NCBI GenBank assembly: GCA_030372965.1
Contig: JAUCQC010000275.1
Coordinates: forward strand, 1 to 60,984
DNA length: 60,984 bases
Direction: 5' to 3'
Source: a bacterium
Lineage (GTDB): Bacteria; Zhuqueibacterota; QNDG01; DTFT01
The notes under the pieces are model-generated. The model worked only from the letters and a program-made list of their open reading frames with translations, ran no database searches and had not been told where the DNA came from. The first letter of the stretch is position 1. Every line of letters begins with the position of its first letter. Below are positions 7,416 to 43,311 of this stretch, piece by piece. A program made the position numbers and the translations under genes.

Positions 7416-8744
7416 TCACAACCGCTTTTCCCAAAGCGTATTCCGGGTCTCTCGGACAATCACGCCGTTCAGGACCAGCAGGGAGATCAGGTTCGGAATC
7501 GCCATGCACCCGTTGGCGATGTCCGCGAAGGACCAGACCATGGGCATGGTCGCCACCGACCCGGCCATGACAAGAGCCGTCCAGACGATCCTGTAGGGAA
7601 GGACGATTTTCCCTCCCAGGAGGTATTCCGCCGCCTTCTCGCCGTAGTACGACCAGCCCAGTATTGTGGAAAAGACGAAAGTCAACAGCCCGACCGTCAG
7701 GATGACCGGACCGACGACCGGGATGTCCGAAAAAGCGGCTTTCGTCAGGCGCGCGCCGTTCAGCCCGTTCATCCACTCCCCCGAATTGACCACGACAATG
7801 CCGGTCATGGCGCACACGACCACGGTGTCCCAGAACGTGCCCGTGGAGGAAACCAGCGCCTGACGCACGGGGTTTCTCGTCTGCGCCGCGGCAGCGACTA
7901 TGGGCGCGCTGCCCAGGCCCGACTCGTTCGAGAACAGGCCTCGCGCGATGCCGTAGCGCATCGCCTCCCGCGCCGCCGCGCCGAGGAACCCACCGGCCGC
8001 GGCGTGGCCGGAGAACGCGCTCCGGAAGATCAGCCGGACCGTTTCCGGCACGGCGCCCGCGTGCATCAGCAGCAGCACCAGGCAGCCGAGGATGTAGAAC
8101 GCGGCCATGAAGGGCACGAGGCGCTCGCAAACCCGGGCGATGCTCTTGATTCCTCCAAGGATGACCACCGCGGTGAAGAGCGTCAGCACGATCCCCGTCG
8201 CCCACGCCGGGATCCGGAACGAATCGTGCACCAGCGTCGCGATCGAATTTGCCTGAACCATGTTGCCGATGCCGAAGGCCGTGACCGCGGTGAGCGCCGC
8301 GAAGATGACCGCCAGCCATTTCGTCCCCATGCCCCGTTCGAGCACATACATCGGCCCGCCGGCCATGGTGCCGTTCGGCGCGGTGACGCGGTACTTCACG
8401 GACAGCACCGCCTCCGCGTACTTGGTGGCGATTCCGAACACGCCCGTGAGCCACATCCAGAGCACGGCGCCCGGTCCCCCCGCCGCGACAGCCGTCGCCA
8501 CGCCCACGATGTTGCCGGTGCCGATGGTGGCGGCAAGCGCCGTTGTCAGGGCGCCGAAGTGGCTGATGTCGCCGGTCCCCTCGCGCTCGCGGCTGAAGGA
8601 CAGCCGGATGGCCGATCCAAGGTACCGCTGGATGAAGCGGAGCCGCACCGTCAGAAACAGGTGGGTTCCGAACAGCAGCACGAGAAGGGGGATGCCCCAG
8701 ACCCGGTCAGCGGCGGCCGCGAGGGCTTGTTCGATGGCATGCAT
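7416..8744 (-). CDS. Sodium:alanine/glycine symporter (AGCS family)
   Basis: 'TALAATIGTGNIVGVATA...GGPGAVLWMW', 'GGPMY', 'GIARGLFSNESGLGSAP', 'FWDTVVVC'. Start moved to MHAIEQ. Confidence 0.93.
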   Translation of the reverse strand: MHAIEQALAAAADRVWGIPLLVLLFGTHLFLTVRLRFIQRYLGSAIRLSFSREREGTGDISHFGALTTALAATIGTGNIVGVATAVAAGGPGAVLWMWLTGVFGIATKYAEAVLSVKYRVTAPNGTMAGGPMYVLERGMGTKWLAVIFAALTAVTAFGIGNMVQANSIATLVHDSFRIPAWATGIVLTLFTAVVILGGIKSIARVCERLVPFMAAFYILGCLVLLLMHAGAVPETVRLIFRSAFSGHAAAGGFLGAAAREAMRYGIARGLFSNESGLGSAPIVAAAAQTRNPVRQALVSSTGTFWDTVVVCAMTGIVVVNSGEWMNGLNGARLTKAAFSDIPVVGPVILTVGLLTFVFSTILGWSYYGEKAAEYLLGGKIVLPYRIVWTALVMAGSVATMPMVWSFADIANGCMAIPNLISLLVLNGVIVRETRNTLWEKRL

Positions 8745-16874: not shown

Positions 16875-18232
16875 AACACAGAAAACATGCAGGCCGGCCC
16901 CCCGGCCGCATCACGATACTCGGAGGCGGGGCGGCTGGACTGGCCGCGGGGTATTATGCCGCGTCCGCCGGGCTGGATTTCACGGTTTTAGAGGCGGAAG
17001 AAAGCGCCGGGGGCATGTGCCGCACCCGCTCCTGCGGCGACTTCCGCTTCGACCTGGGCGCGCATCGGTTCCACGACCAGGACAGCCGGCTGACGCAGGA
17101 GATGAAGGATCTTCTCGGCGAAAGACTGCCGGTCATCGAAATCGGAAGTCAGATTTATTCCGAAGGCCGGCTGATCGACTTTCCCCTGTCCCCCTTCAAC
17201 CTGATCCGGAACATCGGCCCGCTTGGCGCGATGAACGCCGGGCTCCACCTGATCTCCGCCCGGCTCGGGGGCCGCGGGCGGGACGCGGATAATTTCGAGC
17301 GGTTCGCCGTGCACAAGTACGGCCGGCCCATCGCGAAACGGTTCCTGCTGAACTATTCCGAAAAGCTGTGGGGTCTCCCCTGCGGCCGGCTGTCCCTGGA
17401 CGTGTCCGGAAAGCGGCTCAAGGGGCTGTCGCTCACCACCTTTTTGCTCGAGGCTTTCACCTCCGGACGGATCAAGACACGCCACCTGGACGGCGCCTTT
17501 TACTATCCGGAGGGGGGATTCGGCGGCATCATCGATGGATTGACCGGATTCATCGGGCCCGGCCGCATCCGGACGGACAGCCGTGTCACCCGAGTCCTGC
17601 ATCGCGAAGGCCGCGTCACCGCCGTGGAATTGAACGGACGCGAAACCGTGGAAACGGACCGCGTGATCAGCACCCTTCCCCTTCCGCTCTTCATCTCCAT
17701 GATGGACCCCGCCTGCCCCCCGCAAATCGCGTCTCTGGCCGCGAGCCTCTCGTACCGGAGCCTGATTCTGGTCATGCTGATGATCGACCGCGAATCGGTC
17801 ACGCGGTCCGGAACCGTCTATTTTCCCGATCCCGAATTCCCGTTCAACCGGGTGTCCGAACCCAGGAACCGGAGCGGCCGCATGTCTCCGGCCGGGAAAA
17901 CCTCGCTTCTGGCCGAAATCCCCTGCGGCGGCAAGGGCGCGGCCTGCCCGGACGACGAGGCCGGCGCGGTCCGGTCCGTGGTCGACAGCCTGGCGCGGAT
18001 CGGATGGATCCGGGAGGCCGACGTCATCGGAAAACGGGTCGAGCGGCTGGAGCACGCCTACCCGATTCTCGAGACCGGACACGCGGTCAAAGTCGGCCGC
18101 ATTCTGAAATACCTGGAATCATTCCGCAACCTGAGGCTCATCGGCCGAAACAGCCTGTTCAAATACACACATTTTCACAACATGATGCGCCAGGGGCAGG
18201 CGGTCATCGAGGAAGGGTTCAAGGCTCGATAA
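16871..18232 (+). CDS. FAD-dependent oxidoreductase (protoporphyrinogen oxidase / UDP-galactopyranose mutase-like)
   Basis: 'ILGGGAAGLAAG', 'VLEAEESAGGMCRT', 'FDLGAHRFH', 'FYYPEGGFG', 'GRNSLFKY'. The real start is ATG 16871 (GGAG RBS, ATGA overlap), not 15806. Confidence 0.8.
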   Translation: MKHRKHAGRPPGRITILGGGAAGLAAGYYAASAGLDFTVLEAEESAGGMCRTRSCGDFRFDLGAHRFHDQDSRLTQEMKDLLGERLPVIEIGSQIYSEGRLIDFPLSPFNLIRNIGPLGAMNAGLHLISARLGGRGRDADNFERFAVHKYGRPIAKRFLLNYSEKLWGLPCGRLSLDVSGKRLKGLSLTTFLLEAFTSGRIKTRHLDGAFYYPEGGFGGIIDGLTGFIGPGRIRTDSRVTRVLHREGRVTAVELNGRETVETDRVISTLPLPLFISMMDPACPPQIASLAASLSYRSLILVMLMIDRESVTRSGTVYFPDPEFPFNRVSEPRNRSGRMSPAGKTSLLAEIPCGGKGAACPDDEAGAVRSVVDSLARIGWIREADVIGKRVERLEHAYPILETGHAVKVGRILKYLESFRNLRLIGRNSLFKYTHFHNMMRQGQAVIEEGFKAR

Positions 18233-20165: not shown

Positions 20166-21464
20166 TCAGTTTTTCCCATGCTCTCTTTTGGTCCGGCCCC
20201 CAGTCGTCTTCTTTTCTCCGAATATCTCAGGGTACAGTCTTTCGGCGCACTCCGGGCAGATGCCGTGGCTGAAATCCGCCTCTGAATGTTCGCTGATGTA
20301 CAATTCGATATGCTCCCAGTATCCCCTGTCGTTTCGGATTTTTTTGCATGAAGCGCAGATCGGCAGCAGGCCGCTGAGCGTTTTAACCTTCGACAGCGCC
20401 TGGTACAGGTCGTGGATGAGGGTTTCCCGCTCGGTTTCGGCCCGCTTCCGCTCGCTGATGTCATTGATGGTGGAAATCAGCACTTTCTGACCGTGCAGGA
20501 TCATCGGCTCTGTCGTGAACAGGGCCGTCAGGATTCCGCCCGTCGCGGTCTTGAATTGAAACTCCCTGTTGAGGACCATTCCCTTTTCGGACAGTTCCCG
20601 GAGGACTGATTCCCGATCGGATTCATTCACCCAGACCCCCAGGCCCAGCGTCGTTTTGCCGATCACTTCCGAAGAACGGTACCCGGACATCCTCTCAAAA
20701 CCTTCATTGACTTCGAAAATCAAGCCGTCTGAGAGGCGGGTCAGCATGATTCCGTAGGGGGCCGAATGAAAGGCCTTGGAAAATTTCTCCTCCTGCTTTT
20801 CGACGTCTTCCTGCAGGCGGGTCTGCACCATGAGCATCAGGGTGTACAGAAACAGAATGGAGATCAGCTGATAACCGAACAGGACAGCCGAGTTGAAAGT
20901 TCCGGAAGTGAACAGATCCTGCCCCGTCTCCCGGCTTACGAAGAACTGAATGATCCTGACCATGTGGATCAGGCAGAATAATCCGAACACCATCCCAACT
21001 CCGCGCGTCATGCCCCGCATCGGGGCATCGACCCGCCGCATGAGGAGCAGGACGCCTTGAAGCCCGATGATGAGCCAGACGATGGAGAGATTCAGATCGC
21101 GGGCCGCCAGATCGGGCCGGGCATAGGTGAACCAGACGTGCACGACCGAAAAAACGCCGATCAGCAGGACATTATGAGTCTGGCGGCTTCGCTTTCCGGT
21201 GAAAACCTCCAGCCCGATGTAAAGCAGAAGGGTTCCGCTCAGCGCCAGAACATTCGACAGCACCACGGAGGCCCAGTCCGGAATCCAGCCGCGCAAGACG
21301 ACCAGAAAAAGGGCCACCGCCTCCAGGAGGAAATTCATCACCCAGAAAAACAGGCCCGGATATCGTTTCCGGTTTCTCCGCCACTGCAGGGCGATGAGCC
21401 AGACACAGATGCTTTCAATGACCAGCGTCGTTAAAAGGATGGTGCGGATATCGGGGAAGTGCAA
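20166..21464 (-). CDS. Multi-TM sensor + PAS domain + C-terminal CxxC...HGICPEC module
   Basis: About seven TM helices; PAS 'EEKFSKAFHSAP...DISERKRAE'; tail 'LPICASCKKIR..YWEHIELYISEHSEADFSHGICPECAERLYP'. TTG start at 21464 after GGAGG. Confidence 0.75.
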   Translation of the reverse strand: MHFPDIRTILLTTLVIESICVWLIALQWRRNRKRYPGLFFWVMNFLLEAVALFLVVLRGWIPDWASVVLSNVLALSGTLLLYIGLEVFTGKRSRQTHNVLLIGVFSVVHVWFTYARPDLAARDLNLSIVWLIIGLQGVLLLMRRVDAPMRGMTRGVGMVFGLFCLIHMVRIIQFFVSRETGQDLFTSGTFNSAVLFGYQLISILFLYTLMLMVQTRLQEDVEKQEEKFSKAFHSAPYGIMLTRLSDGLIFEVNEGFERMSGYRSSEVIGKTTLGLGVWVNESDRESVLRELSEKGMVLNREFQFKTATGGILTALFTTEPMILHGQKVLISTINDISERKRAETERETLIHDLYQALSKVKTLSGLLPICASCKKIRNDRGYWEHIELYISEHSEADFSHGICPECAERLYPEIFGEKKTTGGRTKREHGKN

Positions 21465-21590
21465 GGGCCCTCCGCATAAAACAGCAGGTTTATTACAACT
21501 CTTTAAATTAGAAAACAGTTCCGTGATTGTCAAGCGGCAATTTGCAGACAGCGAACAAACACCCTTGATGTTTCAGGCCGTCCGCCGCGT

Positions 21591-21625: not shown

Positions 21626-21673
21626 GCCAAAAGGTGAAGAGGTGATGATGTTGAAGAAAAACCGCCCCGGTTG

Positions 21674-22183
21674 TCACGGGGTGACGATGAACACCGCCCG
21701 CCGGTTCAGAGCCCAGGCCTGCTCGTTGTGCCCCGGGTCCGCGGGACGCTCCTTGCCGTAACTGATGGTCGAGATGCGCCGCTCATCCACGCCGGCGTCG
21801 ACGAGATAACGCTTTACGGAAACAGCCCGACGCTCGCCGAGGGCCAGGTTGTATTCGATGGTGCCGCGTTCGTCGCAATGCCCCTCGATCCGCACGCGCA
21901 CGCCCGGGTTCTCCCTGAGCGTGCGGCTGTGCCCGGCCAGCACGCCGCGCGCCTGGGATGACAGCGCGTGCTGGTCGTAGTCGAAATACACGTTGTCCAG
22001 GACGATCGCGGCGGCGCTTCTTTCGGGCCTCGGTTCCACCTTCCGTTCCTGGCGCGGCTCCGCGGGCGTCTGAACCCTTTCCTCCGTGATGCTGCCCTCG
22101 CCCTCAGGATTTTTCTGAACCTGTTTGCTGCATCCGGCCAGCACGACCGACACGGCAAAAATAACCGGAATCCAGTTTTTCAT
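21674..22183 (-). CDS. pal: Peptidoglycan-associated lipoprotein Pal
   Basis: Lipobox VLAGC; 'VYFDYD', 'RIEGHCDERGTIEYNLALGERRA', 'ISYGKERP', 'LNRRA'. Confidence 0.93.
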   Translation of the reverse strand: MKNWIPVIFAVSVVLAGCSKQVQKNPEGEGSITEERVQTPAEPRQERKVEPRPERSAAAIVLDNVYFDYDQHALSSQARGVLAGHSRTLRENPGVRVRIEGHCDERGTIEYNLALGERRAVSVKRYLVDAGVDERRISTISYGKERPADPGHNEQAWALNRRAVFIVTP

Positions 22184-22214
22184 CTGACCACCCTCGCTGC
22201 TTCTGTCCGATTGT

Positions 22215-22727
22215 TCAATTGGAAACCAGCGAATCGATCACGGAAACCAGGGCGGAAAACCGATCTGTTCCCCGCTTCAATGTGCGGATATCCTTCTCCA
22301 GGTCTTCCGTATCCGTCAACAGAGGATCGATGCCCCGGATATTCCGACCGGTCATTTTTGACCGGACATCCAGCAGAATCAGCCGCACGCTTGTCATTTC
22401 GGCCTCAGCGCCGGCCGCATCCTTCAGGGCATGGCGTCTCGCCGCCTGGGCGATCCGGATTTTCGCGTTTTCCAACGGCAGATAGAAATGATGGAAAACA
22501 TAATACTCATCCCTCGCCTGACGCCAGTTTCTGGCCGCGGCCGCCGTGTTTCCGTTCCGCTCATGCCGCAATGCCCCGTCAAGCAGGGACTGGATGCGCA
22601 AGGATTTACCCATAACCGCATCGAGGGAGCAGTCATCCAGAATCGGATTCAACGGTTCAGGCTTTTGGCCGCAAGCGCAGTTGAGGCCCACGAGAACGGT
22701 CAGAATGAGAAGGGAAAACCGGTTCAT
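22215..22727 (-). CDS. Hypothetical alpha-helical lipoprotein
   Basis: MNRFSLLILTVLVGLNCACG signal/lipobox; predicted helical; ends 31 nt before pal. Confidence 0.65.
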   Translation of the reverse strand: MNRFSLLILTVLVGLNCACGQKPEPLNPILDDCSLDAVMGKSLRIQSLLDGALRHERNGNTAAAARNWRQARDEYYVFHHFYLPLENAKIRIAQAARRHALKDAAGAEAEMTSVRLILLDVRSKMTGRNIRGIDPLLTDTEDLEKDIRTLKRGTDRFSALVSVIDSLVSN

Positions 22728-22775
22728 ATCGCCTTTCCATGCTCCAGGAGCTGAATCCATTATAGGAAAAGCAGG

Positions 22776-22790
22776 ACAATTCCTGTGCCG
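22776..22790 (-). promoter_or_regulatory. Candidate sigma54 (-24/-12) promoter, variant -12
   Basis: Minus strand CGGCAC-AGGAA-TTGT (GG-N10-GT instead of GC), 48 nt upstream of ATG 22727. ATTGT-N11-ACAAT at 22886-22906 could be an activator site. Confidence 0.35.
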
Positions 22791-22913
22791 AAGTCCGGCA
22801 TTGCCCGTAAATATAGAATTAATATGTTTTTATCTTGAAAAGAGGCGAAGGGGAATCTCAGGAGAAACGTCTAAAACATTTACAAATTGTCCATTATGTA
22901 TACAATCAGATGG

Positions 22914-24326
22914 TCAATCCTCCATGCCGTATTTCCTGATTTTTTTTCGCAGGGTCATGCGGGAAATGCCCAGAATTTTAGCCGCCCGCACCTGGTTGCC
23001 TCTGGTTTCTTTTAAAACACGCGAGATCAGGCTTTTCTCCGTCCTGGACATGACCGCCTCGTAAAGGGTGATTCCGTCCGGTCGGGATCCTCCCTCCGCT
23101 GTTTCATCGGCCCCGTCCACGCCCCGATTCTCCTCATCGGGACGATCGGCCCGGTGCTCCATTTCCTCCAAAACGAGTTCCTTCGGAATGACGCTGGTCT
23201 TGCTGAGCAGGACCGCCCGTTTCAGGACATTCTCCAGTTCCCGGATGTTGCCGGGCCATGAATACTTGCGCATCTCCTCCAGAAGACCCGGAGCGGGCTT
23301 CATGGCTTCATTCCGGTATGCGTTACCGTATTTGTCCAGAAAATAGGCGGTCAGTTCCTCCAGGTCCTGAATCCGTTCGCGCAGGGGGGGCAGGTGGATG
23401 GACACCACCTTGATGCGGTAATACAGATCCTCCCTGAACCGGCCTTCCCGGATTCCCTTCTCCAGGTTCCGGTTCGTCGCCGCGATGAGGCGCACGTCGA
23501 CCTGAACCGTTTTCTCACTCCCCAGCGGCTCGAATCGTCCCTCCTGGAGCACACGGAGTATCTTGGCCTGTGTGGAGAGGGACATGTCGCCGATTTCGTC
23601 CAGGAAGAGCGTGCCCCGGTCGGCTTGTTCGAATTTGCCGATTCTGCGGCGAACCGCCCCGGTGAACGCGCCCTTTTCATAACCGAACAGTTCGCTCTCG
23701 AGAAGGGTCTCCGGAATGGCCGCGCAGTTCACGGCGAGAAAAGGCTTGTCCATTCTCCCGCTGTGCTGGTAAACGGCCCTGGCGATCAGTTCCTTTCCGG
23801 TTCCGCTCTCCCCCCTTAACAGGACACTGACATTGCTGTCCGCCACCTTCCCGATGATCTTGTAAACGTTCTGCATGGGCGCGGACCGGCCGATGATGCG
23901 GTCCGCGCCGGCCTCCGCCGCCGACTCCTGCGCCCTGAACGTCACTTTTCTACGCATGAAATAGTTGTTCTTCAGGCCGCTGCGGATGAGACTCTCCATG
24001 GCCGGCATGTCGAAGGGCTTGAGCACATAGTCGTAGGCGCCGTATTTGGTGGCCTGTATGGCCGTGTCCGTCGTGCCGAAGGCTGTCATGACGATGACCG
24101 TCGCCTTGGGGTCCTTCTCCCGGATATCCCGGAGCACATCGAGACCGGACCGGTCGGGCAGTTTGACATCCAGGAAGATGAGGTCGAAAATACGTCCGTC
24201 GCACCGGCTCAGCGCTTCCTCTCCGCTGGCCGCCTCGACCACATCGAAGGGCTGGTCCTGCAGAAAACGCATGAAGGAATACCGGACACTTTCCTCGTCG
24301 TCGACAATGAGTATCTGGCTTTTCAT
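22914..24326 (-). CDS. sigma54-dependent response regulator (NtrC/AtoC family: REC-AAA+-HTH)
   Basis: 'ILIVDDE', 'FLDVKLPD', 'GESGTGKE', 'GAFTGA', 'LFLDEIGD', 'WPGNIRELEN', 'GNQVRAAKILGISR.TLRKK'. Start MKSQIL. Confidence 0.95.
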   Translation of the reverse strand: MKSQILIVDDEESVRYSFMRFLQDQPFDVVEAASGEEALSRCDGRIFDLIFLDVKLPDRSGLDVLRDIREKDPKATVIVMTAFGTTDTAIQATKYGAYDYVLKPFDMPAMESLIRSGLKNNYFMRRKVTFRAQESAAEAGADRIIGRSAPMQNVYKIIGKVADSNVSVLLRGESGTGKELIARAVYQHSGRMDKPFLAVNCAAIPETLLESELFGYEKGAFTGAVRRRIGKFEQADRGTLFLDEIGDMSLSTQAKILRVLQEGRFEPLGSEKTVQVDVRLIAATNRNLEKGIREGRFREDLYYRIKVVSIHLPPLRERIQDLEELTAYFLDKYGNAYRNEAMKPAPGLLEEMRKYSWPGNIRELENVLKRAVLLSKTSVIPKELVLEEMEHRADRPDEENRGVDGADETAEGGSRPDGITLYEAVMSRTEKSLISRVLKETRGNQVRAAKILGISRMTLRKKIRKYGMED

Positions 24327-25810
24327 CCGAAGGGCCTTTCCGCGTACGGCAGTTGGACAACGAATCGGGCGCCGCGGGGCCGGATGTTTTCGACACGCAC
24401 GATTCCCCCGTGATTCTTGACAATCTGCTGGCTGATCGCCAGGCCGAGACCGGTGCCGTTTTCTTTGGTTGTGTTGAAGGGCTCGAAAACGGACGGCAGG
24501 AGCGCCTCCGGGATACCGGGACCGCTGTCCGAAATCCGGATTTCGGCCTGACTGTCCGGCCCTCCGGTCACGGCGGTTTCGATCCACAGCCGGCCGCCGC
24601 CGGCCATCGCCTGTACGGCGTTGAGAACAAGATTGACCACGACTTGCTTCAGCTGGCCCGGATCCGCGCGGACGACCGGATCCGGCGCGGCCCATGCGGT
24701 TTTCAGCCGGACGCGGGCGGCCTCAATCTGCGGCCGCATCAGGTGCAGGGCCTGATCGAGCGTCTCTTTGAGACGGACCTCCTTGAATTCCGGCTCCGGC
24801 GGACGCGCAAAATCGAGAAAATTCTGCAGGAAGGACTCCATGCGCGTGATCTGCCGGAGCATCACCTCGTAATCGCGGCTGGTCTGGGAATGCCCCCCCG
24901 CCTTGTCCCGAAGCGAATAGATCAGCATCTTGATGGATGTCAGCGGGTTGCGTAACTCGTGCGCGAGTCCCGCGGCCACAGATCCGAGCATGGCCAGTTT
25001 CTCCGAGTGGATGAGCAGGCGCCGGCTCTGGATCAAATCGCGGTTCGTCCGGTGGATCCGGTCGATCAGCACGCGGATGTGCTTGTCCAGTTTGTCGAAC
25101 TCCGACTCATCCGGTATTTCCATCTCCTCGAGCACATTCTCGCCCGTCGCGCCCTTGACGTTCACGATCAGCCGGTACAGGGGCTGAGTGATGCTCCTCG
25201 CGATCAGAATCCCGAAGACGAGTCCCAGCAGGACGCTCCCGGCCGCGAAAACGATCATGACGGCCTTGATGATGCGGTTCTCTCGCACCAGCTGTTCGCT
25301 GGTCCGGTGCATGATCTTTTCATTGATGAAGAGGTAATTCTCGCATTTCTCGTAGATCGCGCTGAACGTGTCGCGCATGGGTCCGTTCAGAATCAGGCGC
25401 GCGGCCTCGGCATCGCCCTCCTGATGGAGCCTTCGCATGGTCCGGTACAGGCTCTGATAGCGGCCGAACAGCGCTTCCGTATCGGACAGGAGCTGTCTCT
25501 CCTCCTCGGTGCGGGCCTGCGCCCACGCCACGCCGAACCACCTGCGGAATATCCTGTCCTTTTCCCTGAAGATGTTCAGCCACTGCGACTGCCCGTCCAG
25601 CAGATAATTCGCCGCGATCCCCTTCATGTCGAGAAGCGCGATTTCAAGCTCTTCCGCGGCCTTCAGGCTTGAAACATTCTCCTTGAGCATATCCCGGGTC
25701 TTGGCCAGCATGCGGTCTGTATACAAGATGGCCACAGCGCTGAACAGGATGAACAGCACGCTCATGCTGACAAAACCGGCGATCATCCTGGGCCTGATGT
25801 TCCACTTCAC
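24323..25810 (-). CDS. Membrane sensor histidine kinase with four-helix-bundle periplasmic domain
   Basis: Two TMs around a helical domain; 'AHELRNPLTSI', 'NLVLNAVQAM', 'DSGPGI', 'FNTTKENGTGLGL'. GTG start; overlaps the regulator start. Confidence 0.92.
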   Translation of the reverse strand: MKWNIRPRMIAGFVSMSVLFILFSAVAILYTDRMLAKTRDMLKENVSSLKAAEELEIALLDMKGIAANYLLDGQSQWLNIFREKDRIFRRWFGVAWAQARTEEERQLLSDTEALFGRYQSLYRTMRRLHQEGDAEAARLILNGPMRDTFSAIYEKCENYLFINEKIMHRTSEQLVRENRIIKAVMIVFAAGSVLLGLVFGILIARSITQPLYRLIVNVKGATGENVLEEMEIPDESEFDKLDKHIRVLIDRIHRTNRDLIQSRRLLIHSEKLAMLGSVAAGLAHELRNPLTSIKMLIYSLRDKAGGHSQTSRDYEVMLRQITRMESFLQNFLDFARPPEPEFKEVRLKETLDQALHLMRPQIEAARVRLKTAWAAPDPVVRADPGQLKQVVVNLVLNAVQAMAGGGRLWIETAVTGGPDSQAEIRISDSGPGIPEALLPSVFEPFNTTKENGTGLGLAISQQIVKNHGGIVRVENIRPRGARFVVQLPYAERPFG

Positions 25811-25914
25811 GGGATATCCCTTTGAATATTCATGAAATTATCGTATTTTTATTCCAGCCGGAAGATAACCACTTATACGGAAAAATTCAACCGTTTCCGG
25901 CGGGTTTGGAAGAG

Positions 25915-25929
25915 TGGCATTTCATTTGC
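25915..25929 (+). promoter_or_regulatory. Candidate sigma54 (-24/-12) promoter of tolQRAB
   Basis: TGGCAT-TTCAT-TTGC: GG-N10-GC spacing exact, 52 nt upstream of ATG 25982. Confidence 0.55.
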
Positions 25930-25981
25930 CCTTTTCTGTCGCAAGTCCCATTCCTATCAATCGTCCGGAGGTTCCTCTTTC

Positions 25982-26659
25982 ATGGGAAATATCGTAGGCC
26001 TCATCCTGAATACGGGCTGGGTTGCGAGATCGGTTCTGATCCTGCTGGGCGTTCTGTCCATCGTCTCCTGGGCGGTCATTCTGGAGAAGCTCATCCTGTT
26101 CAGAAGAATCCGCGGCCAGTCGAAAGCGTTCGACGCGTTGGTCCGAAAGAACCCAGGAAACGCGGACCTGTACAGGCTGAGCAGGGATTATCCGCATTGC
26201 GCCCCGGCGGTTTTCTACATGCGGGCGTACCGGGAATATCACGCGTTCAGGCAGAAACGGCAGGCGGCCGGCCTGGATCGGGCCGCGGTCTCCGTGGCCG
26301 CTCCGGACCTCGCGCTCCTGGTACGGTCCACGCTCTCCGAGACGCTGGAACAGCCTTCCAGAAACCTGACGCTTCTCTCCACCATCGTGGGCATCAGCCC
26401 CTTTCTCGGCCTGTTCGGCACGGTCTGGGGCGTGATGGAATCGTTCATCCAGATCGGCCTCCAGGGAACCGCGGATCTCTCGGCCGTCGGCCCGGGCATC
26501 GCCGAGGCCCTCATCACCACGGCCGCGGGACTGGCTGTGGCCATACCGGCGCTCGCGGCCCACAACTGGGCGGCCGCGGAACTCAGAAAAATCGAGGACC
26601 GGCTCGACCTTTTCTCGGACGAATCACGAAAACGGTTCGACGGGGAAAGCGCGGCATGA
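25982..26659 (+). CDS. tolQ: TolQ/ExbB proton channel protein
   Basis: 'VSWAVILEK', 'ISPFLGLFGTVWGVM.SF', 'VGPGIAEALITTAAGLAVAIPA'. Start placed at MGNIVG. Confidence 0.88.
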   Translation: MGNIVGLILNTGWVARSVLILLGVLSIVSWAVILEKLILFRRIRGQSKAFDALVRKNPGNADLYRLSRDYPHCAPAVFYMRAYREYHAFRQKRQAAGLDRAAVSVAAPDLALLVRSTLSETLEQPSRNLTLLSTIVGISPFLGLFGTVWGVMESFIQIGLQGTADLSAVGPGIAEALITTAAGLAVAIPALAAHNWAAAELRKIEDRLDLFSDESRKRFDGESAA

Positions 26660-27057
26660 GACGGGAGCGTTTTGCGCCGATCGCCGACATCAATGTCACC
26701 AATCTGGTCGACGTGGCGCTGGTTCTGCTGATTGTCTTCATCATCGCGGCGCCCGCGTTTAAGGGCGGCATTCCAGTCCGCCTGCCGAGGGCCTCGGCTC
26801 CGCCCGTTCCGGCCGCAAACCCGGTCATCGTGGCCCTCGACGCGGAAGGGAACCTGTTCGTGGACGGAAGCCCGGTGCCGCCGGACGATCTGAGACCCGC
26901 TCTCGTACGGAGCCGCCTCGAGTCTCCGGGCCGGCCGGTTCTGCTCGAAGCGGACAAGGAACTGCCGTACGGCCGGGTCATCGAGGTGATGGACCGCATC
27001 CGCCAGGCCGGCATCGCGGACGTGGGACTCGTGGTTTCGCCCGGACCCGCGCCATGA
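26656..27057 (+). CDS. tolR: TolR/ExbD biopolymer transport protein
   Basis: MRRERFAPIADINVTNLVDVALVLLIVFII (conserved TM Asp), 'ADKELPYGRVIEVMD.IRQAGI'. ATGA overlap with tolQ. Confidence 0.88.
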   Translation: MRRERFAPIADINVTNLVDVALVLLIVFIIAAPAFKGGIPVRLPRASAPPVPAANPVIVALDAEGNLFVDGSPVPPDDLRPALVRSRLESPGRPVLLEADKELPYGRVIEVMDRIRQAGIADVGLVVSPGPAP

Positions 27058-27680
27058 AACGGTGGCTGACGGTTTCCTTCGGCCTGCACGCCTTTCTGTT
27101 CGGATTGCTCTTCGTCGGCCGCCGGGCGCCCGCACTTCCGGAACCCGGCCTGATCCTGCGCGTTTCACTTCATGCGGCTCCCGCTCCGGCGCGGGAAACG
27201 GGACCGGAACTGGAGGCGGTGCCTGCCGCTGCCCTCGTCGTAAAACCGGACGAAGCGGAACCCGAGAATGGTCGGCCTGTGGAGAAACCGTCGGAACCGC
27301 CCGCTGATCGCGAAGAGCGCAAACCGGCCCCGCGCGAGGAGCATGTGCCGGGGACGGCCACCGGCCCGGCTGTCCGCGTGGAGGGAGGGGCGTTTCCCTA
27401 TTCCTATTATCTGAACCTCATCCAGCTCAGGATACAGGAAAACTGGTCCCCGCCCTACAGGCGGACCGGGGGCAGGGAGTCGCGGACGGCCCAGGTCGGG
27501 TTCATCATCCACCGGGACGGCCGCGTATCGGACGTGGAACTGGAGGCCGGAACGGAGTTCTATCTGTTCGATCAGGCCGCGCTCAGGGCGGTCATGAACG
27601 CGGGACGGTTTCCGCCCCCGCCCGGCGGCATGACGCAGGATTACCTGAAAATACACGTCACATTCGAGGCGCTTCCGTGA
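27054..27680 (+). CDS. tolA: TolA/TonB-type energy transducer
   Basis: TM with SxxLH motif, Pro/Glu-rich linker, C-terminal 'YLNLIQLRIQENWSPP...FDQAALRAV..FPPPP'. Located between tolR and tolB. Confidence 0.72.
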   Translation: MKRWLTVSFGLHAFLFGLLFVGRRAPALPEPGLILRVSLHAAPAPARETGPELEAVPAAALVVKPDEAEPENGRPVEKPSEPPADREERKPAPREEHVPGTATGPAVRVEGGAFPYSYYLNLIQLRIQENWSPPYRRTGGRESRTAQVGFIIHRDGRVSDVELEAGTEFYLFDQAALRAVMNAGRFPPPPGGMTQDYLKIHVTFEALP

Positions 27681-28945
27681 AAAACCGCGTTCTCCTCCTG
27701 ATCTGCGCCGCCTGCCTGCTCCCCGCCTGGACCGGCCCGGCCGCGGCCGGCCAGAAGGAATACCACCTGAAGGTGCAGACCGGCGCGTTCACCGCGATTC
27801 CGGTCGCGATCCCCCCGTTCGAATCCGTCCGCGACGCCGCATGGATCCCGCGGATGCGGGACATCCTGATCGCCGATCTGGACTTCACCGGCCTGATCCG
27901 CGTTCTGCCCGCGCCGTCCGGCGCCGTGCCGCGGGAGGCGGCCGCCTTCATCGAAACCCGCTGTTCCGCGAGGGACGGTGGCGTGGAAATCCGCGCCAGG
28001 CTGAAGGACGCCTCGACGAAATCCGTGATCCTCGAGAGCGCGGTCCGCGTCACCGAAACGGATTTCCGCGTGCGGGCGCACGAATGGGCGGACGCCGTGC
28101 TCCTGCATCTCACCGGCGAGCGTGGAATCGCCTCGACCCGCATCGCCTACATCATCAAGCGCGGCCGCGCCGGCACGGTCACGGTTTCGGACATCGACGG
28201 CGCGGACGTGCGCCGCGTGTCGCCGGACGATTCGCTGAACCTGTCGCCCTCCTGGTCCCCGGACGGAAGACGGCTCTGCTACACCAGTTACGCCTCCGGC
28301 CGGCCCAGGCTGGCGGTGTTCGACCTGGAAGCCGGGCGCGCGGCCCGGTTCGCCGCGGCCGGCGGCATGCAGACCTCGCCGGCCTGGTCTCCGGACGGGA
28401 AATGGATCGCGTTCACGCTCACCACCAACGGGAACTCGGACCTCTTCTGCTCGGACGAAACCGGCGGCGCGCTCCGCAGGCTCACCGACAGCCCGGCCAT
28501 CGACTGCTCGCCCGCCTGGTCTCCGGACGGGCGAGAGATCGCCTTCACCTCGGACCGCGGCGGCTCCCCCCAGATCTACCTGATGGACGCCTCGGGCGGG
28601 AACGTGCGGCGGCTGACCTGGGAGGGCGGTTACAATGATTCGCCCGCGTGGTCGCCGAAAGGGGACCGCATCGCCTACGTGACCCGCGACCGCACCGGTT
28701 TTCAGGTGTGTGTCATCGACGTCAACGGCGAGAACCGGATTCAGCTGACGGACGACCCATACTCGCATGAGGACCCCTGCTGGTCCCCGAACGGCCTGCA
28801 CCTCGCGTTCTCGTCGAACCCGGGGGGACGCTGGGACATTTTCATCATGCGGCAGGACGGGACGGGCCTCTTCCAGGTCACCCGCGGGGGCGGGAATCTG
28901 TCGCCCGCCTGGTCGCCCTTCCCCTCCGGCCCATCAGCGGAATGA
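27677..28945 (+). CDS. tolB: TolB beta-propeller protein
   Basis: 'VAIPPF', 'ADLDFTG' N-domain and repeated PD40 'SPAWSPDG' blades. Confidence 0.9.
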   Translation: MKNRVLLLICAACLLPAWTGPAAAGQKEYHLKVQTGAFTAIPVAIPPFESVRDAAWIPRMRDILIADLDFTGLIRVLPAPSGAVPREAAAFIETRCSARDGGVEIRARLKDASTKSVILESAVRVTETDFRVRAHEWADAVLLHLTGERGIASTRIAYIIKRGRAGTVTVSDIDGADVRRVSPDDSLNLSPSWSPDGRRLCYTSYASGRPRLAVFDLEAGRAARFAAAGGMQTSPAWSPDGKWIAFTLTTNGNSDLFCSDETGGALRRLTDSPAIDCSPAWSPDGREIAFTSDRGGSPQIYLMDASGGNVRRLTWEGGYNDSPAWSPKGDRIAYVTRDRTGFQVCVIDVNGENRIQLTDDPYSHEDPCWSPNGLHLAFSSNPGGRWDIFIMRQDGTGLFQVTRGGGNLSPAWSPFPSGPSAE

Positions 28946-29143: not shown

Positions 29144-29172
29144 TTGATTCAGAACCCGCGTTTCATTATATT
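29144..29172 (+). promoter_or_regulatory. sigma70-type promoter for cpoB-tamB-tamA
   Basis: TTGATT-17 nt-TATATT just upstream of ATG 29187. Confidence 0.45.
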
Positions 29173-29186: not shown

Positions 29187-29951
29187 ATGACCTTGAAAGA
29201 CCAGATCGGTTTATTCCCGATTCTTCTGCTCGTCGCGTGCCTGGCCGCGGGCTGCGCCTCGCGGAAGGAAATCGTCCGCTTTCAGGAGGACACGGCCGCC
29301 ATCCAGGACCGTCTCGCCGGCCTGCAGAAGGACAACGAGCAAATGCGGGAACAGCTCAGGGAGATCAACCGCTCCATCCAGTCCCTGCGGGAATCGAACG
29401 CCTCGGTGAAGGCCGACCTGATCTCCGAGATGTCGTCCCTCCGAGAGGAAACCGCCTATCTGCGCAATCTGCTCGACGACACCGGGAGCCGGATGTCGCG
29501 GATGATGCAGAATTTCGACCGGCCGGCCGGAGCCGGGGACGCGGCCGCCGCGGAATCCGGGGCCCCGCCGTCTCCGGAGAGCGCCAAGGCGCTGTACGAC
29601 GCGGCCTATCTCGACCTTTCGAGAAAAAACTACGACCTCGCCGCAGGCGAGTTCCGAGAATACATCCGGCTGTATCCGGGGAGCGACTACGCGGGCAACG
29701 CGCAGTACTGGATCGCGGAGATCGCCTACGCGAAAAAGGATTACACGGCCGCGCTCGCCGAGTTCCGGAAAGTCGTCACGGACTACCCGAAGAGCGGCAA
29801 GGTGCGCGCGGCCCATCTCAAGGCGGCCTATTGCCGCATCCATCTCGGCGACACGGCCGGCGCCCGCTCCGACCTGGAGAGAATCGTCCTGCAATTCCCC
29901 GGTACGGAAGAGGCGCGTCTCGCGGCCGGAAGACTGAAGGAAATCCGGTGA
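29187..29951 (+). CDS. cpoB: Tol-Pal system protein CpoB/YbgF (coiled coil + TPR)
   Basis: Lipobox LAAGC, heptad coiled coil, TPR 'LYDAAY...YPGSDYAGNAQYWIAE...YPKSGKV..A.LK'. Confidence 0.88.
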   Translation: MTLKDQIGLFPILLLVACLAAGCASRKEIVRFQEDTAAIQDRLAGLQKDNEQMREQLREINRSIQSLRESNASVKADLISEMSSLREETAYLRNLLDDTGSRMSRMMQNFDRPAGAGDAAAAESGAPPSPESAKALYDAAYLDLSRKNYDLAAGEFREYIRLYPGSDYAGNAQYWIAEIAYAKKDYTAALAEFRKVVTDYPKSGKVRAAHLKAAYCRIHLGDTAGARSDLERIVLQFPGTEEARLAAGRLKEIR

Positions 29952-30024: not shown

Positions 30025-33000
30025 GTGATTTCCAGACCGGTCAGAATCCTCCTGCTTTCCGCCTCCCTGCTGATCGCCGCTTTCACCGCGTATTGTGTGA
30101 TGACGCGCACCGCCTCCGGATGGCTCGAAAAACGCATCGCCTCTGCCGTGGCCGGGACCGCCGGAGCCGACTGTTCGATCGGACGTGTGCGCGTCGGATT
30201 ATTCCTTGGAATCCGAATGGAATCCGTCCGGGTCGCGGAAACAGGATCGGATTCCGGACCGGTGCTCGCGATCTCCCGGGTCCGGATTCATTCTCCCCTG
30301 CCGGAATGGGCGCGGAGAGGCCGCCTGTTTCTCTCCATTCAGGCCGACACGATCTCCATCGACGCCCGCCGGTTCGGCCGTCTGGGAGGCAAAGGAAACC
30401 ATGGGGAATCCGGGCCGTCCCTGCCGGCCGCCGGCGGCCGACTCCCGTGGAGGGGAGAGATCCGTTCCCGTCTGATAACCGTTCATCAGGGCAGGCCTGA
30501 TTCTGCCGTGGCCTCGATTGGCGGAATGGTTCTGGCCGTGGCCAGGCCCGCTCAGAGTGCCTCCGTCTCTTTTCTGGCCTCCGCGGATTCGGTCCGGTCC
30601 TTTTTGGAAGATGCGACCGTCGATTTTTACGGGCCGGCCCTGGCCGGGGTTCTCGATTCCGCGGCAATCACGATACGGTCCTTCGAATCGGGCATTCCCG
30701 GCGGCCGCGTGACCGGAGACGGCCGGATCGAGCCTCATGGCCGTGACTGGCGCATCCGGGGCGGCCTCGAGTTCCGTACGGCCGTCGAATCCTGGCCGGC
30801 CCGGGTGTTTGAAAGATCGGGTACGCCGGTTCCAGCCTCCGGCAACGTGCAGGGCCGTCTGAACGCGGATGGCCCACTGAAACGACCTTCCGTGACCTGG
30901 GACGTGGATGTCCGGGACCTCGTTTTTCAGACCGCGACGATACGGAAGGCGCGGAGCTCAGGCGCCTGGGCCGGAGAAACCGTCGCTCTGCGCGCATTTT
31001 CCATGACCGTCGGCGACGGGTCCATTTCAGGATCCGGTTCCTGGACTTTCCACGGCACCCGGCGGGCCCGGCTCTCCGCCTCCTTCAGCCGGTTGGACAT
31101 CCCGTCTCTCTCAGGATGGATCCTGCCTTCGGACGTTCCGGTCCGGGGCGCGCTTTCAGGCGATATCCGGATCGACGCGTTCCCCGATGACCCCGGCCGG
31201 TTCTCCGCGGCGTCGAAGGTCGCGGCCGAAGACCTGAAAATCAAAGGCAAACCGCTCGATCCCGTGCGGCTCGATCTGAACATCGAAAACGGCGGGGCGG
31301 ATGTCCGGATAACGGGCAGCGGCCTCACCGCAGAAATTGAAGGCGACTGGCCGCCCGGTTCCGCCGGATCCTCCGGATTTTCAGGCGGCGCGTTCTCCGT
31401 CCGGCTGGATGATCCTTTCCGCGGTGTTTTTCTGCCGGAAGGATGGCACGCCGCGGGGCCCACCGGTGCCACGGGTCATTACCGGGTTCACGGGGGAACC
31501 GCTGAAGCGGACGCCGATCTCTTTCTCTCCGGCATCCGGACGGCCGACTGGGCCCTCGACTCCCTGGCCGGCCCCTTTGCCGTCCGCCTGGATCTGCAAA
31601 GACGGTCTGTGTCAATGCAGGGCGGTGACATACTCTGCGCGGCCCGGGCCTTCCGGCCGGAGGACACGCTGGGGATCGACGGGCGCATCCGCCTGTCCGC
31701 GTCCTTGAATCCGGAAAACGGCCATCCCTCGGGGGCGCTGGCGATGACGGTACGCCCGCTTTCCATCGAAGGGGTGACCGTCGATTCCGCGGCTCTGGAA
31801 GCGGAGCTGGAAGGCCTGGATCTCCGGATCCGCCGCTTGTCCTTCACGCAGGAATCGAATTCGGTTCTGCTGGCCGGATCGATCCCGGTCAGCCGGGACC
31901 CGAACGGTTCATGGAAACCGGACGGAGCCAGGCCCTTTGACCTGCGCCTTTCCGGAGAGGACATCCGCCTGGATGTGTTGCGGCCTTTCCTGGCGGGATC
32001 CGGGTCGATCGGCGGCCGGTCGACTTTCGACCTGCGGATGACGGGCACACCCGGCCATTCCAGCATCGACGGACATTGGAGCGTGTCCGGCGGTTCGATG
32101 CGACAAACCGGGATGCCGGACATCGATTCGGTTTCCTGGAACGCGGCGTTCCTGGATTCCACCATACGCATCGAAAGCCTGTCCGGCCGCGTCAGAGGCC
32201 TCCCCCTGATGATCGCATCGGACATCGGGTACAGGCTCGGGGAAGATTACCGCGTTCAGGGAACGGCCCTTTTTCTGCGTCCGGCCGGAATACGCGCCGG
32301 TTTTTTTCTCGCGGCCGATTCCATGCATGGTTCCCTGACCGTGGATTCGCTCCGGCTGGCGCTTCTGGATTCCCTGCTCCCCGGATCCTTCCCTCTGAAG
32401 AACATGAGCGGGGTCGTCCGGGCCGATCTGGCCGTGTCCGGCCGCCCGGGTTCTCCGCTGTTGACGGGCCTTCTGCACGGCGACCGCGTGAATTTCTCAG
32501 CGGCCGGGATGGATCTGGGTTCCGGGAACGGCCGGTTCGATCTCTCTTTCGACAGGGAAAGCATTTCAATCGACACCCTGTCCCTTCCCGTGCTGGGCGG
32601 ATTCCTGGACGTCCGGGGCGGTCTCAGCCATGAGAACGGCAGGATCCGGTCCTGGGATTTGGACGCGGACATCCGGAACGTCCGTGTCCGGGAGCCCGGC
32701 CGATGGACGATCTCCCTGGACAGGAGCCGGCTGAAACTGTTCCGCGACGGAGACTCGAACCGGCTGACGGGCGAGGTCGTTCTGGGCGAGAGCCGTTACC
32801 TGCAGAACATGAAAGCGACCGACTTCCTGTCCCTGACCCGCCCCCCGGCCCGGTCCTCCCCCCGGCTTCCGGATGAGTTGGCGGACATGGAGCTGAACAT
32901 CCGCGTCACCGGCGGCCGGGACGTCTGGATCGACAACAACCTCGCACGGGTCCGATTCCAGCCGGAAATGGCGGTGTCCGGCCGCGTCACGGCCCCGGAG

Positions 33001-33663
33001 CTCACCGGCCGCCTGACCACGCTCGAGGGGACGGTGCAGTATCTGGATCACGGTTTCACGGTGAAGAAAGGCATCGCGGATTTCACCGTTCCCGGCAGGG
33101 TCAACCCCATTCTGGACATCGAAGCAGAAACCCGGCTGAAGAATTATCAGACGTATTCGGGCAAACCCTACACCGTGTCCCTGACGCTTCAGGGCCCGAT
33201 GGACCAGGCGGCTTTCAATCTCGCCTCCGTGCCCCAGGCGTCCAGGACGGACATCCTGTCCCTTCTCACGTTCGGGGCCACCCGGGACGAACTCAACCGG
33301 ACCCTTCCCGCGTCCGATCGGAACGGGGGCATGTCCGATATTCTCATCGACAGGGCCAAATCGCTCTCCAGCCGGCGCGTCGCCTCCACGGCTGAAAATT
33401 ACATGGGCACCCTCTTCCGGCTCGATTCCATGTCCATCGAGGGGAACCTGTTCAGGTTCGACAGGGAGTGGGGCCCGCGCCTCCAGGCCTCGAAACGGGT
33501 GTCCCGGAACGTCGCCCTTAATTATTCCACGACCGTCGGGCACATGAACGAGGAATCCGTGCGCCTGAATGTGCGCATCGACCGCCGTTTTTCGCTTGAA
33601 GGCCAGGTCGACCGCATCGGCCGCTCGGGGATCGATCTGAAATACAAGGTCCGGTTCAAATGA
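30025..33663 (+). CDS. tamB: TamB/DUF490 (AsmA-like) translocation and assembly module protein
   Basis: N-terminal TM, long beta-strand repeats, C-terminal DUF490 'G.LTTLEGTVQYLDH.FTV.KG..DF...NPILDIEA', 'L.S.P...DILSLLTFG'. Confidence 0.85.
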   Translation: MISRPVRILLLSASLLIAAFTAYCVMTRTASGWLEKRIASAVAGTAGADCSIGRVRVGLFLGIRMESVRVAETGSDSGPVLAISRVRIHSPLPEWARRGRLFLSIQADTISIDARRFGRLGGKGNHGESGPSLPAAGGRLPWRGEIRSRLITVHQGRPDSAVASIGGMVLAVARPAQSASVSFLASADSVRSFLEDATVDFYGPALAGVLDSAAITIRSFESGIPGGRVTGDGRIEPHGRDWRIRGGLEFRTAVESWPARVFERSGTPVPASGNVQGRLNADGPLKRPSVTWDVDVRDLVFQTATIRKARSSGAWAGETVALRAFSMTVGDGSISGSGSWTFHGTRRARLSASFSRLDIPSLSGWILPSDVPVRGALSGDIRIDAFPDDPGRFSAASKVAAEDLKIKGKPLDPVRLDLNIENGGADVRITGSGLTAEIEGDWPPGSAGSSGFSGGAFSVRLDDPFRGVFLPEGWHAAGPTGATGHYRVHGGTAEADADLFLSGIRTADWALDSLAGPFAVRLDLQRRSVSMQGGDILCAARAFRPEDTLGIDGRIRLSASLNPENGHPSGALAMTVRPLSIEGVTVDSAALEAELEGLDLRIRRLSFTQESNSVLLAGSIPVSRDPNGSWKPDGARPFDLRLSGEDIRLDVLRPFLAGSGSIGGRSTFDLRMTGTPGHSSIDGHWSVSGGSMRQTGMPDIDSVSWNAAFLDSTIRIESLSGRVRGLPLMIASDIGYRLGEDYRVQGTALFLRPAGIRAGFFLAADSMHGSLTVDSLRLALLDSLLPGSFPLKNMSGVVRADLAVSGRPGSPLLTGLLHGDRVNFSAAGMDLGSGNGRFDLSFDRESISIDTLSLPVLGGFLDVRGGLSHENGRIRSWDLDADIRNVRVREPGRWTISLDRSRLKLFRDGDSNRLTGEVVLGESRYLQNMKATDFLSLTRPPARSSPRLPDELADMELNIRVTGGRDVWIDNNLARVRFQPEMAVSGRVTAPELTGRLTTLEGTVQYLDHGFTVKKGIADFTVPGRVNPILDIEAETRLKNYQTYSGKPYTVSLTLQGPMDQAAFNLASVPQASRTDILSLLTFGATRDELNRTLPASDRNGGMSDILIDRAKSLSSRRVASTAENYMGTLFRLDSMSIEGNLFRFDREWGPRLQASKRVSRNVALNYSTTVGHMNEESVRLNVRIDRRFSLEGQVDRIGRSGIDLKYKVRFK

Positions 33664-42931: not shown

Positions 42932-43174
42932 TCAGGGTATGGTGTCATGCAAATCGTCCCGAGTCCACTTTTGATCCCCGACCACGGCTTCTGAGCGGTC
43001 CAGCAGAGCGGACAACTCCGAAATGATTTCTTTCTTTACCGAATCTTCCCTCAGAACGAGTGTTTCCAGATACTCGCGGATCAATCCGGTCACGGTCGTT
43101 TCCTTATCCACCGCTATTTTTCTGACCTTTTTCAGAAGCTGGCTATCAACGGCCACCGTGATGTTTCTTGTCAT
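42932..43174 (-). CDS. Ribbon-helix-helix antitoxin-like protein (DUF6364-like), no adjacent toxin
   Basis: MTRNITVAVDSQLLKKVRKIAVDKETTVTGLIREYL (RHH pattern) and C-terminal 'WTRDDLH'; GGAGG RBS. Confidence 0.65.
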   Translation of the reverse strand: MTRNITVAVDSQLLKKVRKIAVDKETTVTGLIREYLETLVLREDSVKKEIISELSALLDRSEAVVGDQKWTRDDLHDTIP

Positions 43175-43311
43175 ATTTCCTCCAAAATCTCCACCCCTGG
43201 CATGATAAGTATAATACATATTTTATTGAAAATCGAGCGTTTTATTGTATTTAGAACGATTTTCTCCCGCGAGTTTGCGTAAATCTCCGGAAGGTTGTCC
43301 GTTAAAATCAA

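Follow-up and report, generated by a model that had tools for sequence, protein, structure and literature searches.

A candidate sigma-54 circuit tied to pal in a rearranged Tol-Pal gene cluster of an uncultured bacterium

The contig JAUCQC010000275.1 (assembly GCA_030372965.1; 60,984 nucleotides), analysed over its whole length and called here the window, carries a rearranged Tol-Pal gene cluster into which a two-component pair, a sensor histidine kinase and an NtrC-family activator of sigma-54, is inserted. Our main finding is that pal, together with the preceding gene for a helical probable lipoprotein, is probably a sigma-54 unit under the control of this adjacent pair. It is also conceivable, though we put it forward only tentatively, that the same activator fires the promoter of the divergent tolQRAB genes. 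The original prediction for this DNA had the pair switching on both halves of Tol-Pal. The lipoprotein-pal half is strongly supported, as its promoter, enhancer and linkage to pal are conserved; the tolQ half is supported in part, its promoter lacking the enhancer. The evidence for the circuit comes from computation throughout, and the organism is not in culture.

The window is contig C275 of a metagenome-assembled genome of 3.28 Mb (G000) that is 85% complete. G001 and G003 are two other species of the same genus, the other G numbers are genomes of relatives, and the L numbers are loci or contigs of relatives, some of them metagenomic; the comparison set comprised 167 genomes of the phylum. 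A sequence search of runs found DNA of G000 in industrial-waste, activated-sludge, bioreactor and biogas metagenomes, with 98% of the sampled words present in run X1. The open reading frame map and the family scans place every gene and motif of the original prediction where it had them, with pal, the lipoprotein, the activator and the kinase on one strand and tolQ, tolR, tolA and tolB diverging from them. The features are the following.

21665 to 21681, minus strand: terminator-like hairpin and T run directly 3' of pal (terminator scan)
21674 to 22183, minus strand: pal, peptidoglycan-associated lipoprotein with lipobox LAGC (TIGR02802, 139.5 bits against a cut-off of 125.35)
22215 to 22727, minus strand: probable lipoprotein of 170 amino acids, with no Pfam or NCBIfam family
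22776 to 22790, minus strand: predicted sigma-54-type promoter of lipoprotein-pal, CGGCAC-aggaa-TTGT, CGGCACaggaaTTGT, with T at -12
22868 to 22904, minus strand: predicted enhancer (upstream activating sequence), two TGT-N11-AC(A/G) dyads 20 bp apart, top hit of the genome with a matrix from other genomes
22914 to 24326, minus strand: NtrC-family response regulator and sigma-54 activator (REC, Sigma54_activat and HTH_8 domains)
24323 to 25810, minus strand: sensor histidine kinase, two membrane helices around a 4HB_MCP domain (periplasmic part about residues 31-180), then HisKA and HATPase
25864 to 25890, plus strand: two short blocks, GATAA-N4-TTAT and AAATTCAA, conserved upstream of the tolQ promoter
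25915 to 25929, plus strand: predicted sigma-54-type promoter of tolQRAB, TGGCAT-ttcat-TTGC, TGGCATttcatTTGC
25982 to 26659, plus strand: tolQ (best family TIGR02796, 170 bits, below the cut-off of 221)
26656 to 27057, plus strand: tolR (best family TIGR02801, 94 bits, below the cut-off of 127)
27054 to 27680, plus strand: gene for a TolA-like protein with a membrane anchor, a Pro/Glu-rich linker and a TonB_C-type C-terminal domain (best family tolA_full, 44 bits, below the cut-off of 59)
27677 to 28945, plus strand: tolB (TIGR02800, 361 bits against a cut-off of 343)
29187 to 29951, plus strand: ybgF/cpoB, 240 nt after tolB (TIGR02795, over the cut-off)

The predicted lipoprotein-pal promoter and its enhancer

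The motif CGGCAC-aggaa-TTGT (22790-22776, minus strand) lies 48 nt from the ATG of the lipoprotein gene and has the GG and TTG of a sigma-54 promoter, with T replacing C at -12. The two other species of the genus have the same layout as G000, and in them both this motif and the one before tolQ are invariant and the adjacent bases vary. Conservation does not extend to a TATAAT that overlaps the G000 leader, and the promoter scan found no sigma-70-like site on the correct strand for lipoprotein-pal. Outside the genus, 9 of 11 loci have GGYAY-N5-TTG[G/T] on the strand of the activator and no more than 400 nt behind its stop codon, compared with a background rate of 0.029 per such window in the same loci (binomial tail 7e-13; 7e-7 when one locus per family is counted, 4/4). 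Two further loci have TGGTAT-N5-TTGA and TGGCAT-N5-TTGA after the activator. Altogether a motif of the type GGYAY-N5-TTG[T/G/A] is present in nearly every relative with the sensor pair, in at least five families. The original prediction had asked whether motif and gene order are kept in relatives, and promoter, tandem enhancer and linkage to pal are all conserved across families.

The base at -12 had been listed as a caveat of the original prediction. Of 17 activator-adjacent promoters, 12 have T at this position, 3 have G, 2 have A and none has C, and a search that permitted C at -12 beside the activator orthologues added no promoter. In the other predicted sigma-54 promoters of G000 the base is mostly C (37 of 53 upstream matches). 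The deviation therefore appears as a signature of this regulon. There is moreover a precedent, as the pspF-pspA intergenic region of E. coli K-12, used as a control, contains the pspA promoter TTGGCACGCAAATTGTA with the core TGGCACgcaaaTTGT, which also has T (TTGT) at -12.

In the promoter spacer (22772-22785, minus strand) there is an inverted repeat, CAGGA-ATTG-TCCTG followed by CTTTTCC, which figures in the list of the terminator scan. Relatives share it only in part, and it might weaken transcription running in from the activator gene.

The enhancer was found by aligning the 260 nt upstream of the activator-adjacent promoters. The shared element consists of two TGT-N11-ACA dyads with starts 20 bp apart (for example TGTAAGCGATTCATACA-GAA-TATAAAAATTTTTTACA), and it is present in 11 of 12 loci, matching 10-12 of 12 key positions. 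The distance from its centre to the GG of the promoter is 97-99 nt in the family of the window and in G026 (97 in the window) and 113-118 nt at the other loci. The ATTGT-N11-ACAAT noted in the original prediction (22906-22886, minus strand) proves to be the first of the two conserved dyads; the second is TGTAAATGTTTTAGACG. With a matrix built from ten sites of other genomes, G000 excluded, the element at 22868-22904 ranks first in the whole G000 genome with 27.4 bits, the runner-up having 16.5. Two further metagenomic relatives likewise have the pair of dyads behind the activator gene. Since the enhancer travels with the activator, the dyads are taken as its predicted binding site, and their layout would correspond to the classical architecture of the NtrC family. 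In G166 a second set of enhancer and promoter precedes another gene for a single-domain REC protein (L033, about 16990-17139).

The activator has good matches to the REC, AAA+ and HTH_8 families of Pfam (9.9e-29, 2.2e-74 and 5.4e-15). Its translation shows Walker A (GESGTGKE), the receiver Asp in DVKLPD and the GAFTGA loop, which is intact as had been read originally. It stays below the cut-offs of all the named equivalogs (NtrC 478 against 559 bits, AtoC 463 against 714, ZraR 364 against 760). As the circuit fails every equivalog cut-off of the ZraSR and NtrBC type, it can be regarded as a separate member of the NtrC class. Orthologues of the kinase sensor domain occur in 14 of the 167 genomes, in at least six families. 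The original prediction had reckoned with a genome lacking rpoN; the gene is present on contig C274 (TIGR02395, 429.7 bits against a cut-off of 277). G000 encodes about 15 sigma-54 activators, and the adjacent one is the sole sigma-54 activator gene in the window.

From these parts the following course of events can be proposed. Judging by its domain content, the kinase would sense a periplasmic cue through its four-helix-bundle module and phosphorylate the receiver Asp of the activator. The activator would bind the tandem enhancer at 22868-22904, as conservation suggests. By analogy with the mechanism of its family it would then assemble as an AAA+ ring on the dyads, loop across the AT-rich stretch to the sigma-54 holoenzyme at CGGCAC-N5-TTGT and use its GAFTGA loop for the ATP-driven opening of the closed complex. 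The product would be a lipoprotein-pal transcript that stops at the hairpin behind pal, and the second, separately conserved sigma-54 promoter would serve tolQRAB and perhaps also ybgF.

The kinase gene is also faced by a GG-N10-GC motif (25940-25955, minus strand), which is AGGAATgggacTTGC in G000 (9.1 bits) and is represented by TGGAAT in G001 and TGGAAC in G003. It shares sequence with the leader of tolQ and runs head-on against the tolQ promoter. This motif could be an autoregulatory sigma-54 promoter of the kinase-activator operon, or simply conserved leader sequence.

The predicted tolQ promoter and its possible activator

The tolQ motif TGGCAT-ttcat-TTGC (25915-25929, plus strand) has the canonical GG/GC spacing and lies 52 nt before the tolQ ATG. 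Sigma-54 sites were scored with a matrix seeded from the textbook consensus and retrained on 47 intergenic hits of G000, with this locus excluded; the gene calls used for the genome-wide promoter statistics were rough. The great majority of the high-scoring sites are located 20-120 nt before a gene, and among the sites of at least 16.5 bits upstream of genes, 43 are in sense orientation and 10 in the opposite one. In total, G000 has roughly 40-60 good sigma-54 promoter candidates. The tolQ site, TGGCATTTCATTTGC, reaches 16.5 bits, which only 77 of 6.5 million positions do. Of the two sites that the original prediction had proposed to score with a matrix, this one thus stands out and the lipoprotein-pal site, with only 4.1 bits, does not.

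G001 and G003 have the 15-mer of the tolQ promoter without any change, and so does L061, which has the same divergent arrangement of kinase-activator and tolQRAB, a TolQ with 58% identity and an intergenic region that is otherwise rewritten. L061 overlaps L058 by 15 bases and the two therefore represent one organism with the full architecture (pal, lipoprotein, promoter, enhancer, activator, kinase and divergent tolQRAB). At L059 the kinase, activator, enhancer, promoter and lipoprotein are intact, tolQ is a remnant of 178 amino acids and pal is reduced to 35 codons; there the tolQ motif reads TTTC, having lost the G at -13. As the 15-mer is kept in the diverged L061 and has decayed beside a tolQ remnant, the tolQ promoter appears to be functional and the juxtaposition old. 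A recent chance juxtaposition, which the original prediction had considered, does not fit the same divergent layout at 58% TolQ identity. L059 is an ENA metagenome contig of 103 kb with broken flanks at 4246-4782 and 8546-8653, and its right-hand junction is also found in an independent Logan assembly (L060). In G022, of another family, tolQRAB lies inside the downstream unit of the activator. A metagenome scan with TolQ as query gave no match.

The adjacent activator might control lipoprotein-pal only, with tolQRAB being fired by one of the roughly 14 other activators through the GATAA-N4-TTAT and AAATTCAA blocks or through a site not yet recognised, and we regard this as a serious contender that stops short of being probable. 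The original prediction had found no matching activator site upstream of tolQ, and searches with a two-dyad and a single-dyad matrix agree. Within 260 nt of the promoter there is no recognisable copy of the enhancer, the matches reaching 7-8 of 12 key positions at non-conserved places, and TGT-N11-ACA is absent before tolQ in all three species of the genus. A different activator is favoured because the tolQ promoter lacks the enhancer and has the canonical C at -12, which is seen in none of the 17 activator-adjacent promoters; moreover, different blocks are conserved upstream of it, and about 15 activators are encoded.

On the other side, no other activator gene is present in the 61-kb window. 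The tolQ sigma-54 motif is found only beside the sensor pair (as tolQ's own promoter in the genus of G000 and at L061, with tolQ inside the activator's unit in G022) and is absent in 11 relatives with tolQ elsewhere, six from the order and five from other families, where no sigma-54 motif precedes a tolQ that does not adjoin the pair. Because the motif tracks adjacency to the sensor pair, control of tolQRAB by the shared activator is favoured. In addition, the lipoprotein-pal enhancer is only 3 kb from the tolQ promoter, and NtrC-type enhancers can act over kilobases.

Several elements near tolQ were considered as activator sites and rejected. A dyad-like 17-mer (TGTATACAAGATGGCCA, 25718-25734) that matches the real site in 14 of 17 positions is a by-product of coding, being explained by kinase codons (A-I-L-Y-T), since the kinase of G022 has it with no promoter facing it. 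The dyad CGGAAA-N10-TTTCCG is not repeated near other sigma-54 sites. GATAA-N4-TTAT has only four occurrences in the genome, too few to establish a motif; two of them are beside other sigma-54 sites, those of a small heat-shock gene and of a REC gene. The AAATTCAA block resembles an IHF site. A near-identical promoter on contig C168 (CGGCATTTCATTTGCC) has no upstream element in common with tolQ.

Strong sigma-54 sites also precede an Hsp20-type small heat-shock gene (C53:612-627, minus strand) and a gene for a single-domain REC protein (C227:9398-9413, plus strand). In the window, an island of low GC (about 43000-50000; 39-43% compared with about 62%) holds another strong sigma-54-type site (TGGCACATCCATTGCT, 47613-47628), to which the seed matrix gives 17.6 bits.

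Genes of the activator's unit and of the cluster

The unit downstream of the activator differs among relatives. It comprises lipoprotein-pal in G000, G001, G003 and L058, and tolA-tolB-lipoprotein-pal-ybgF in G058. In G022 it contains a protein of 341 amino acids of unknown function, a single-domain REC protein, tolQRAB, a secreted protein, pal and ybgF, and in G026 an unknown protein, REC and pal. The unit consists of pal2 in G152, REC-pal2 in G166 and a pal2-like gene below the TIGR02802 cut-off in G161. In G123 it has a gene for a small membrane protein and further on one for a peptidoglycan transglycosylase. Thus pal is nearly always in the unit. The sensor-linked pal is the only one detected in G000, G001, G022 and G058; for G000 this means a single match genome-wide in a genome that is 85% complete. 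The large genomes of one family (G152, G161, G166 and also G160) have two pal genes, of which one belongs to a tolQRAB-pal-ybgF cluster of the canonical kind that has no sigma-54 motif and the other follows the promoter beside the sensor pair. A tree of about 100 conserved Pal residues did not resolve whether the pal of G000 descends from the sensor-linked or the tolB-linked form. In two genomes of one family the unit opens with a secreted protein of 330-340 amino acids that has no Pfam family (L031, 6611-7636; L030, 1819-2820), with a single-domain receiver gene behind it; the C-terminus of the secreted protein looks beta-rich, so that it may reside in the outer membrane.

The lipoprotein gene ends 31 nt upstream of pal, so the two are probably co-transcribed. 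In G058 it is flanked by tolB and pal, and elsewhere it precedes pal. Only 10 relatives of its 170-residue product were found among 5.8 billion proteins, and a search of genome contigs with the profile of the protein gave matches only in the two metagenome-assembled genomes of the same genus; the family is rare and lineage-restricted. It matches no Pfam or NCBIfam family, apart from weak hits of two members to YfdX of Pfam (E 0.0038). An AlphaFold2 model predicts a confident all-helical bundle (pLDDT 86.7) for which no PDB entry matched below E 0.26. The hydrophobic N-terminus and a nearly invariant Cys17 suggest that the protein is lipid-anchored; the residues before the cysteine (L-N, V-S, M-S, L-S) fit the lipobox [LVI][ASTVI][GAS]C only loosely.

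It could be argued that the pair mainly regulates this lipoprotein, as an accessory or feedback partner of the sensor in the way that ZraP is for ZraSR, and that pal is a passenger. At L059 kinase, activator, enhancer, promoter and lipoprotein are kept beside a broken pal and a truncated tolQ, and in G098 the lipoprotein is intact and pal is a remnant. However, most of the families with the sensor pair have no lipoprotein and retain pal in the unit (G022, G026, G152, G161, G166), which makes pal the more constant partner and this alternative unlikely.

An extension of pal control by the pair would be a closed loop of envelope homeostasis, which we consider an improbable, if attractive, reading. 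In such a loop the kinase bundle would read the tethering of the outer membrane to peptidoglycan and set the dose of the only Pal through sigma-54, and in this family it would also set the whole Tol motor. The helical lipoprotein would possibly be an outer-membrane-anchored co-sensor or feedback partner, by analogy with RcsF, NlpE and ZraP elsewhere. The non-C base at -12 would be a tuned leak, giving a tightly locked promoter class the basal activity that an indispensable envelope gene needs.

A number of observations count against the control of lipoprotein-pal by sigma-54 and the adjacent activator. The 4.1 bits of the lipoprotein-pal site are reached by about 21% of upstream regions in either orientation, and TTGT-type sites are not enriched upstream of genes genome-wide, no more than TTGA-type ones. 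The motif by itself is for these two reasons no evidence, and the case for this promoter is entirely comparative. The terminator scan found no clear terminator between the activator and lipoprotein genes, so read-through from the kinase-activator operon could feed lipoprotein-pal. There is no clear enhancer in G058, and that this very protein binds the dyads is inferred from their co-occurrence. Among sequencing runs, the window sequence matched DNA metagenomes only (waste, sludge, digesters) and no RNA run. The first and third of these points, together with the fact that Pal is usually a constitutive envelope protein, would suit an account in which the motifs do not work, a housekeeping sigma factor drives both units with some read-through into lipoprotein-pal and the activator has its targets elsewhere; this is very unlikely in view of the promoter and enhancer at fixed spacing across families, an enhancer that is the single best site in the genome, a tolQ 15-mer kept in a diverged spacer and decayed beside a pseudogene, and the sigma-70-like sites, which are absent from the right strand or, like the TATAAT of G000, not conserved.

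With regard to the neighbourhood, TolB, Pal and CpoB/YbgF all exceed their NCBIfam equivalog cut-offs, and ybgF follows tolB. The canonical order tolQRA-tolB-pal-cpoB on one strand is not found, pal being on the opposite strand and 5.5 kb away. A sigma-70-like site at 29144-29172 (promoter scan) precedes ybgF/cpoB, which may have its own promoter. Directly after ybgF there are a TamB-like protein of 1212 amino acids and a further long open reading frame (30025-35495), so that the neighbourhood can be seen as an extended envelope-biogenesis cluster. Just downstream of pal (20166-21533, minus strand) is a gene for a membrane protein that carries a PAS domain and, at the C-terminus, a tail rich in Cys (CASCKK...HGICPEC), with no recognised output domain. 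Tol-Pal may be patchy in the order, as among 31 genomes only 10 have a TolQ orthologue (E < 1e-30); in G098 and G123 the search gave no TolB above the cut-off of the family.

Meaning and comparison with known systems

In outer-membrane constriction and in keeping the envelope intact, Tol-Pal is a core machine. What is known of its regulation comes mostly from a few Proteobacteria, in which it is under housekeeping promoters. Here, throughout an uncultured phylum, pal is genetically linked to a dedicated sensor kinase and sigma-54 activator; in several lineages the link concerns the sole pal gene, and tolQRAB too. If the proposed control is true, the dosage of Pal or Tol-Pal would not be constant but set by a signal. 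The circuit offers several features for direct testing (an enhancer of defined sequence, a class of promoters whose base at -12 is conserved and departs from the consensus, and a rare helical lipoprotein partner), and every part of it can be tested by reconstitution in E. coli without culturing the organism.

A comparative survey of sigma-54 regulons mentions neither tol nor pal (PMC3162934). No report linking sigma-54 to tol or pal was found in the full-text literature searched, beyond which further papers may exist; this agrees with the expectation of an undescribed control of Tol-Pal.

The system that most resembles the window in its parts is ZraS/ZraR/ZraP of E. coli and Salmonella. It also has a kinase with a periplasmic domain, an activator of the REC-AAA+-HTH_8 type and, as adjacent target, a small helical periplasmic protein, and it is an envelope-stress system. 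The kinase of the window matches the ZraS model with E 1.4e-52 (179 bits, the equivalog cut-off being 479) and the activator the ZraR model with E 1.3e-108 (364 bits, the cut-off being 760). Unlike ZraSRP, the sensor module in the window is a 4HB_MCP bundle and the output includes pal, within Tol-Pal. The helical protein, which is probably lipid-anchored, has no detectable similarity to ZraP, CpxP or Spy.

The pair PspF-pspA of E. coli has, as is predicted for the window, a sigma-54 promoter with T at -12 and an activator gene that adjoins its target; pspA also has an enhancer with a bending site and an envelope-related output. Unlike the activator of the window, PspF is without a receiver domain and is controlled by the binding of PspA instead of by a kinase. 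The protein under its control is a stress effector of the inner membrane, whereas that in the window would be an outer-membrane tether.

As in NtrB/NtrC-glnA and in the NifA systems, tandem dyads are placed about 100-140 nt upstream of a predicted -24/-12 promoter. The dyad TGT-N11-ACA resembles the NifA site TGT-N10-ACA, but with a spacing of N11 rather than N10. The activator is below the NtrC and NifA cut-offs, and its predicted regulon is envelope-related and not nitrogen-related.

The window has TolB, Pal and CpoB/YbgF, and also a probable TolQ, a probable TolR and a TolA-like protein, in common with the canonical Tol-Pal system of E. coli and other Proteobacteria (ybgC-tolQRA and tolB-pal-cpoB). 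It differs from it in that pal is on the other strand behind an extra lipoprotein gene and not after tolB, in that a two-component pair is inserted in the cluster, and in that both units have predicted sigma-54-type promoters; the tol-pal cluster of E. coli uses housekeeping promoters. What is already known, therefore, is the regulatory device itself, which is of the standard NtrC type and works like ZraSR-ZraP or NtrBC. What would be new is the unreported target of such a circuit, Pal or Tol-Pal together with a rare helical lipoprotein, in a cluster that is rearranged.

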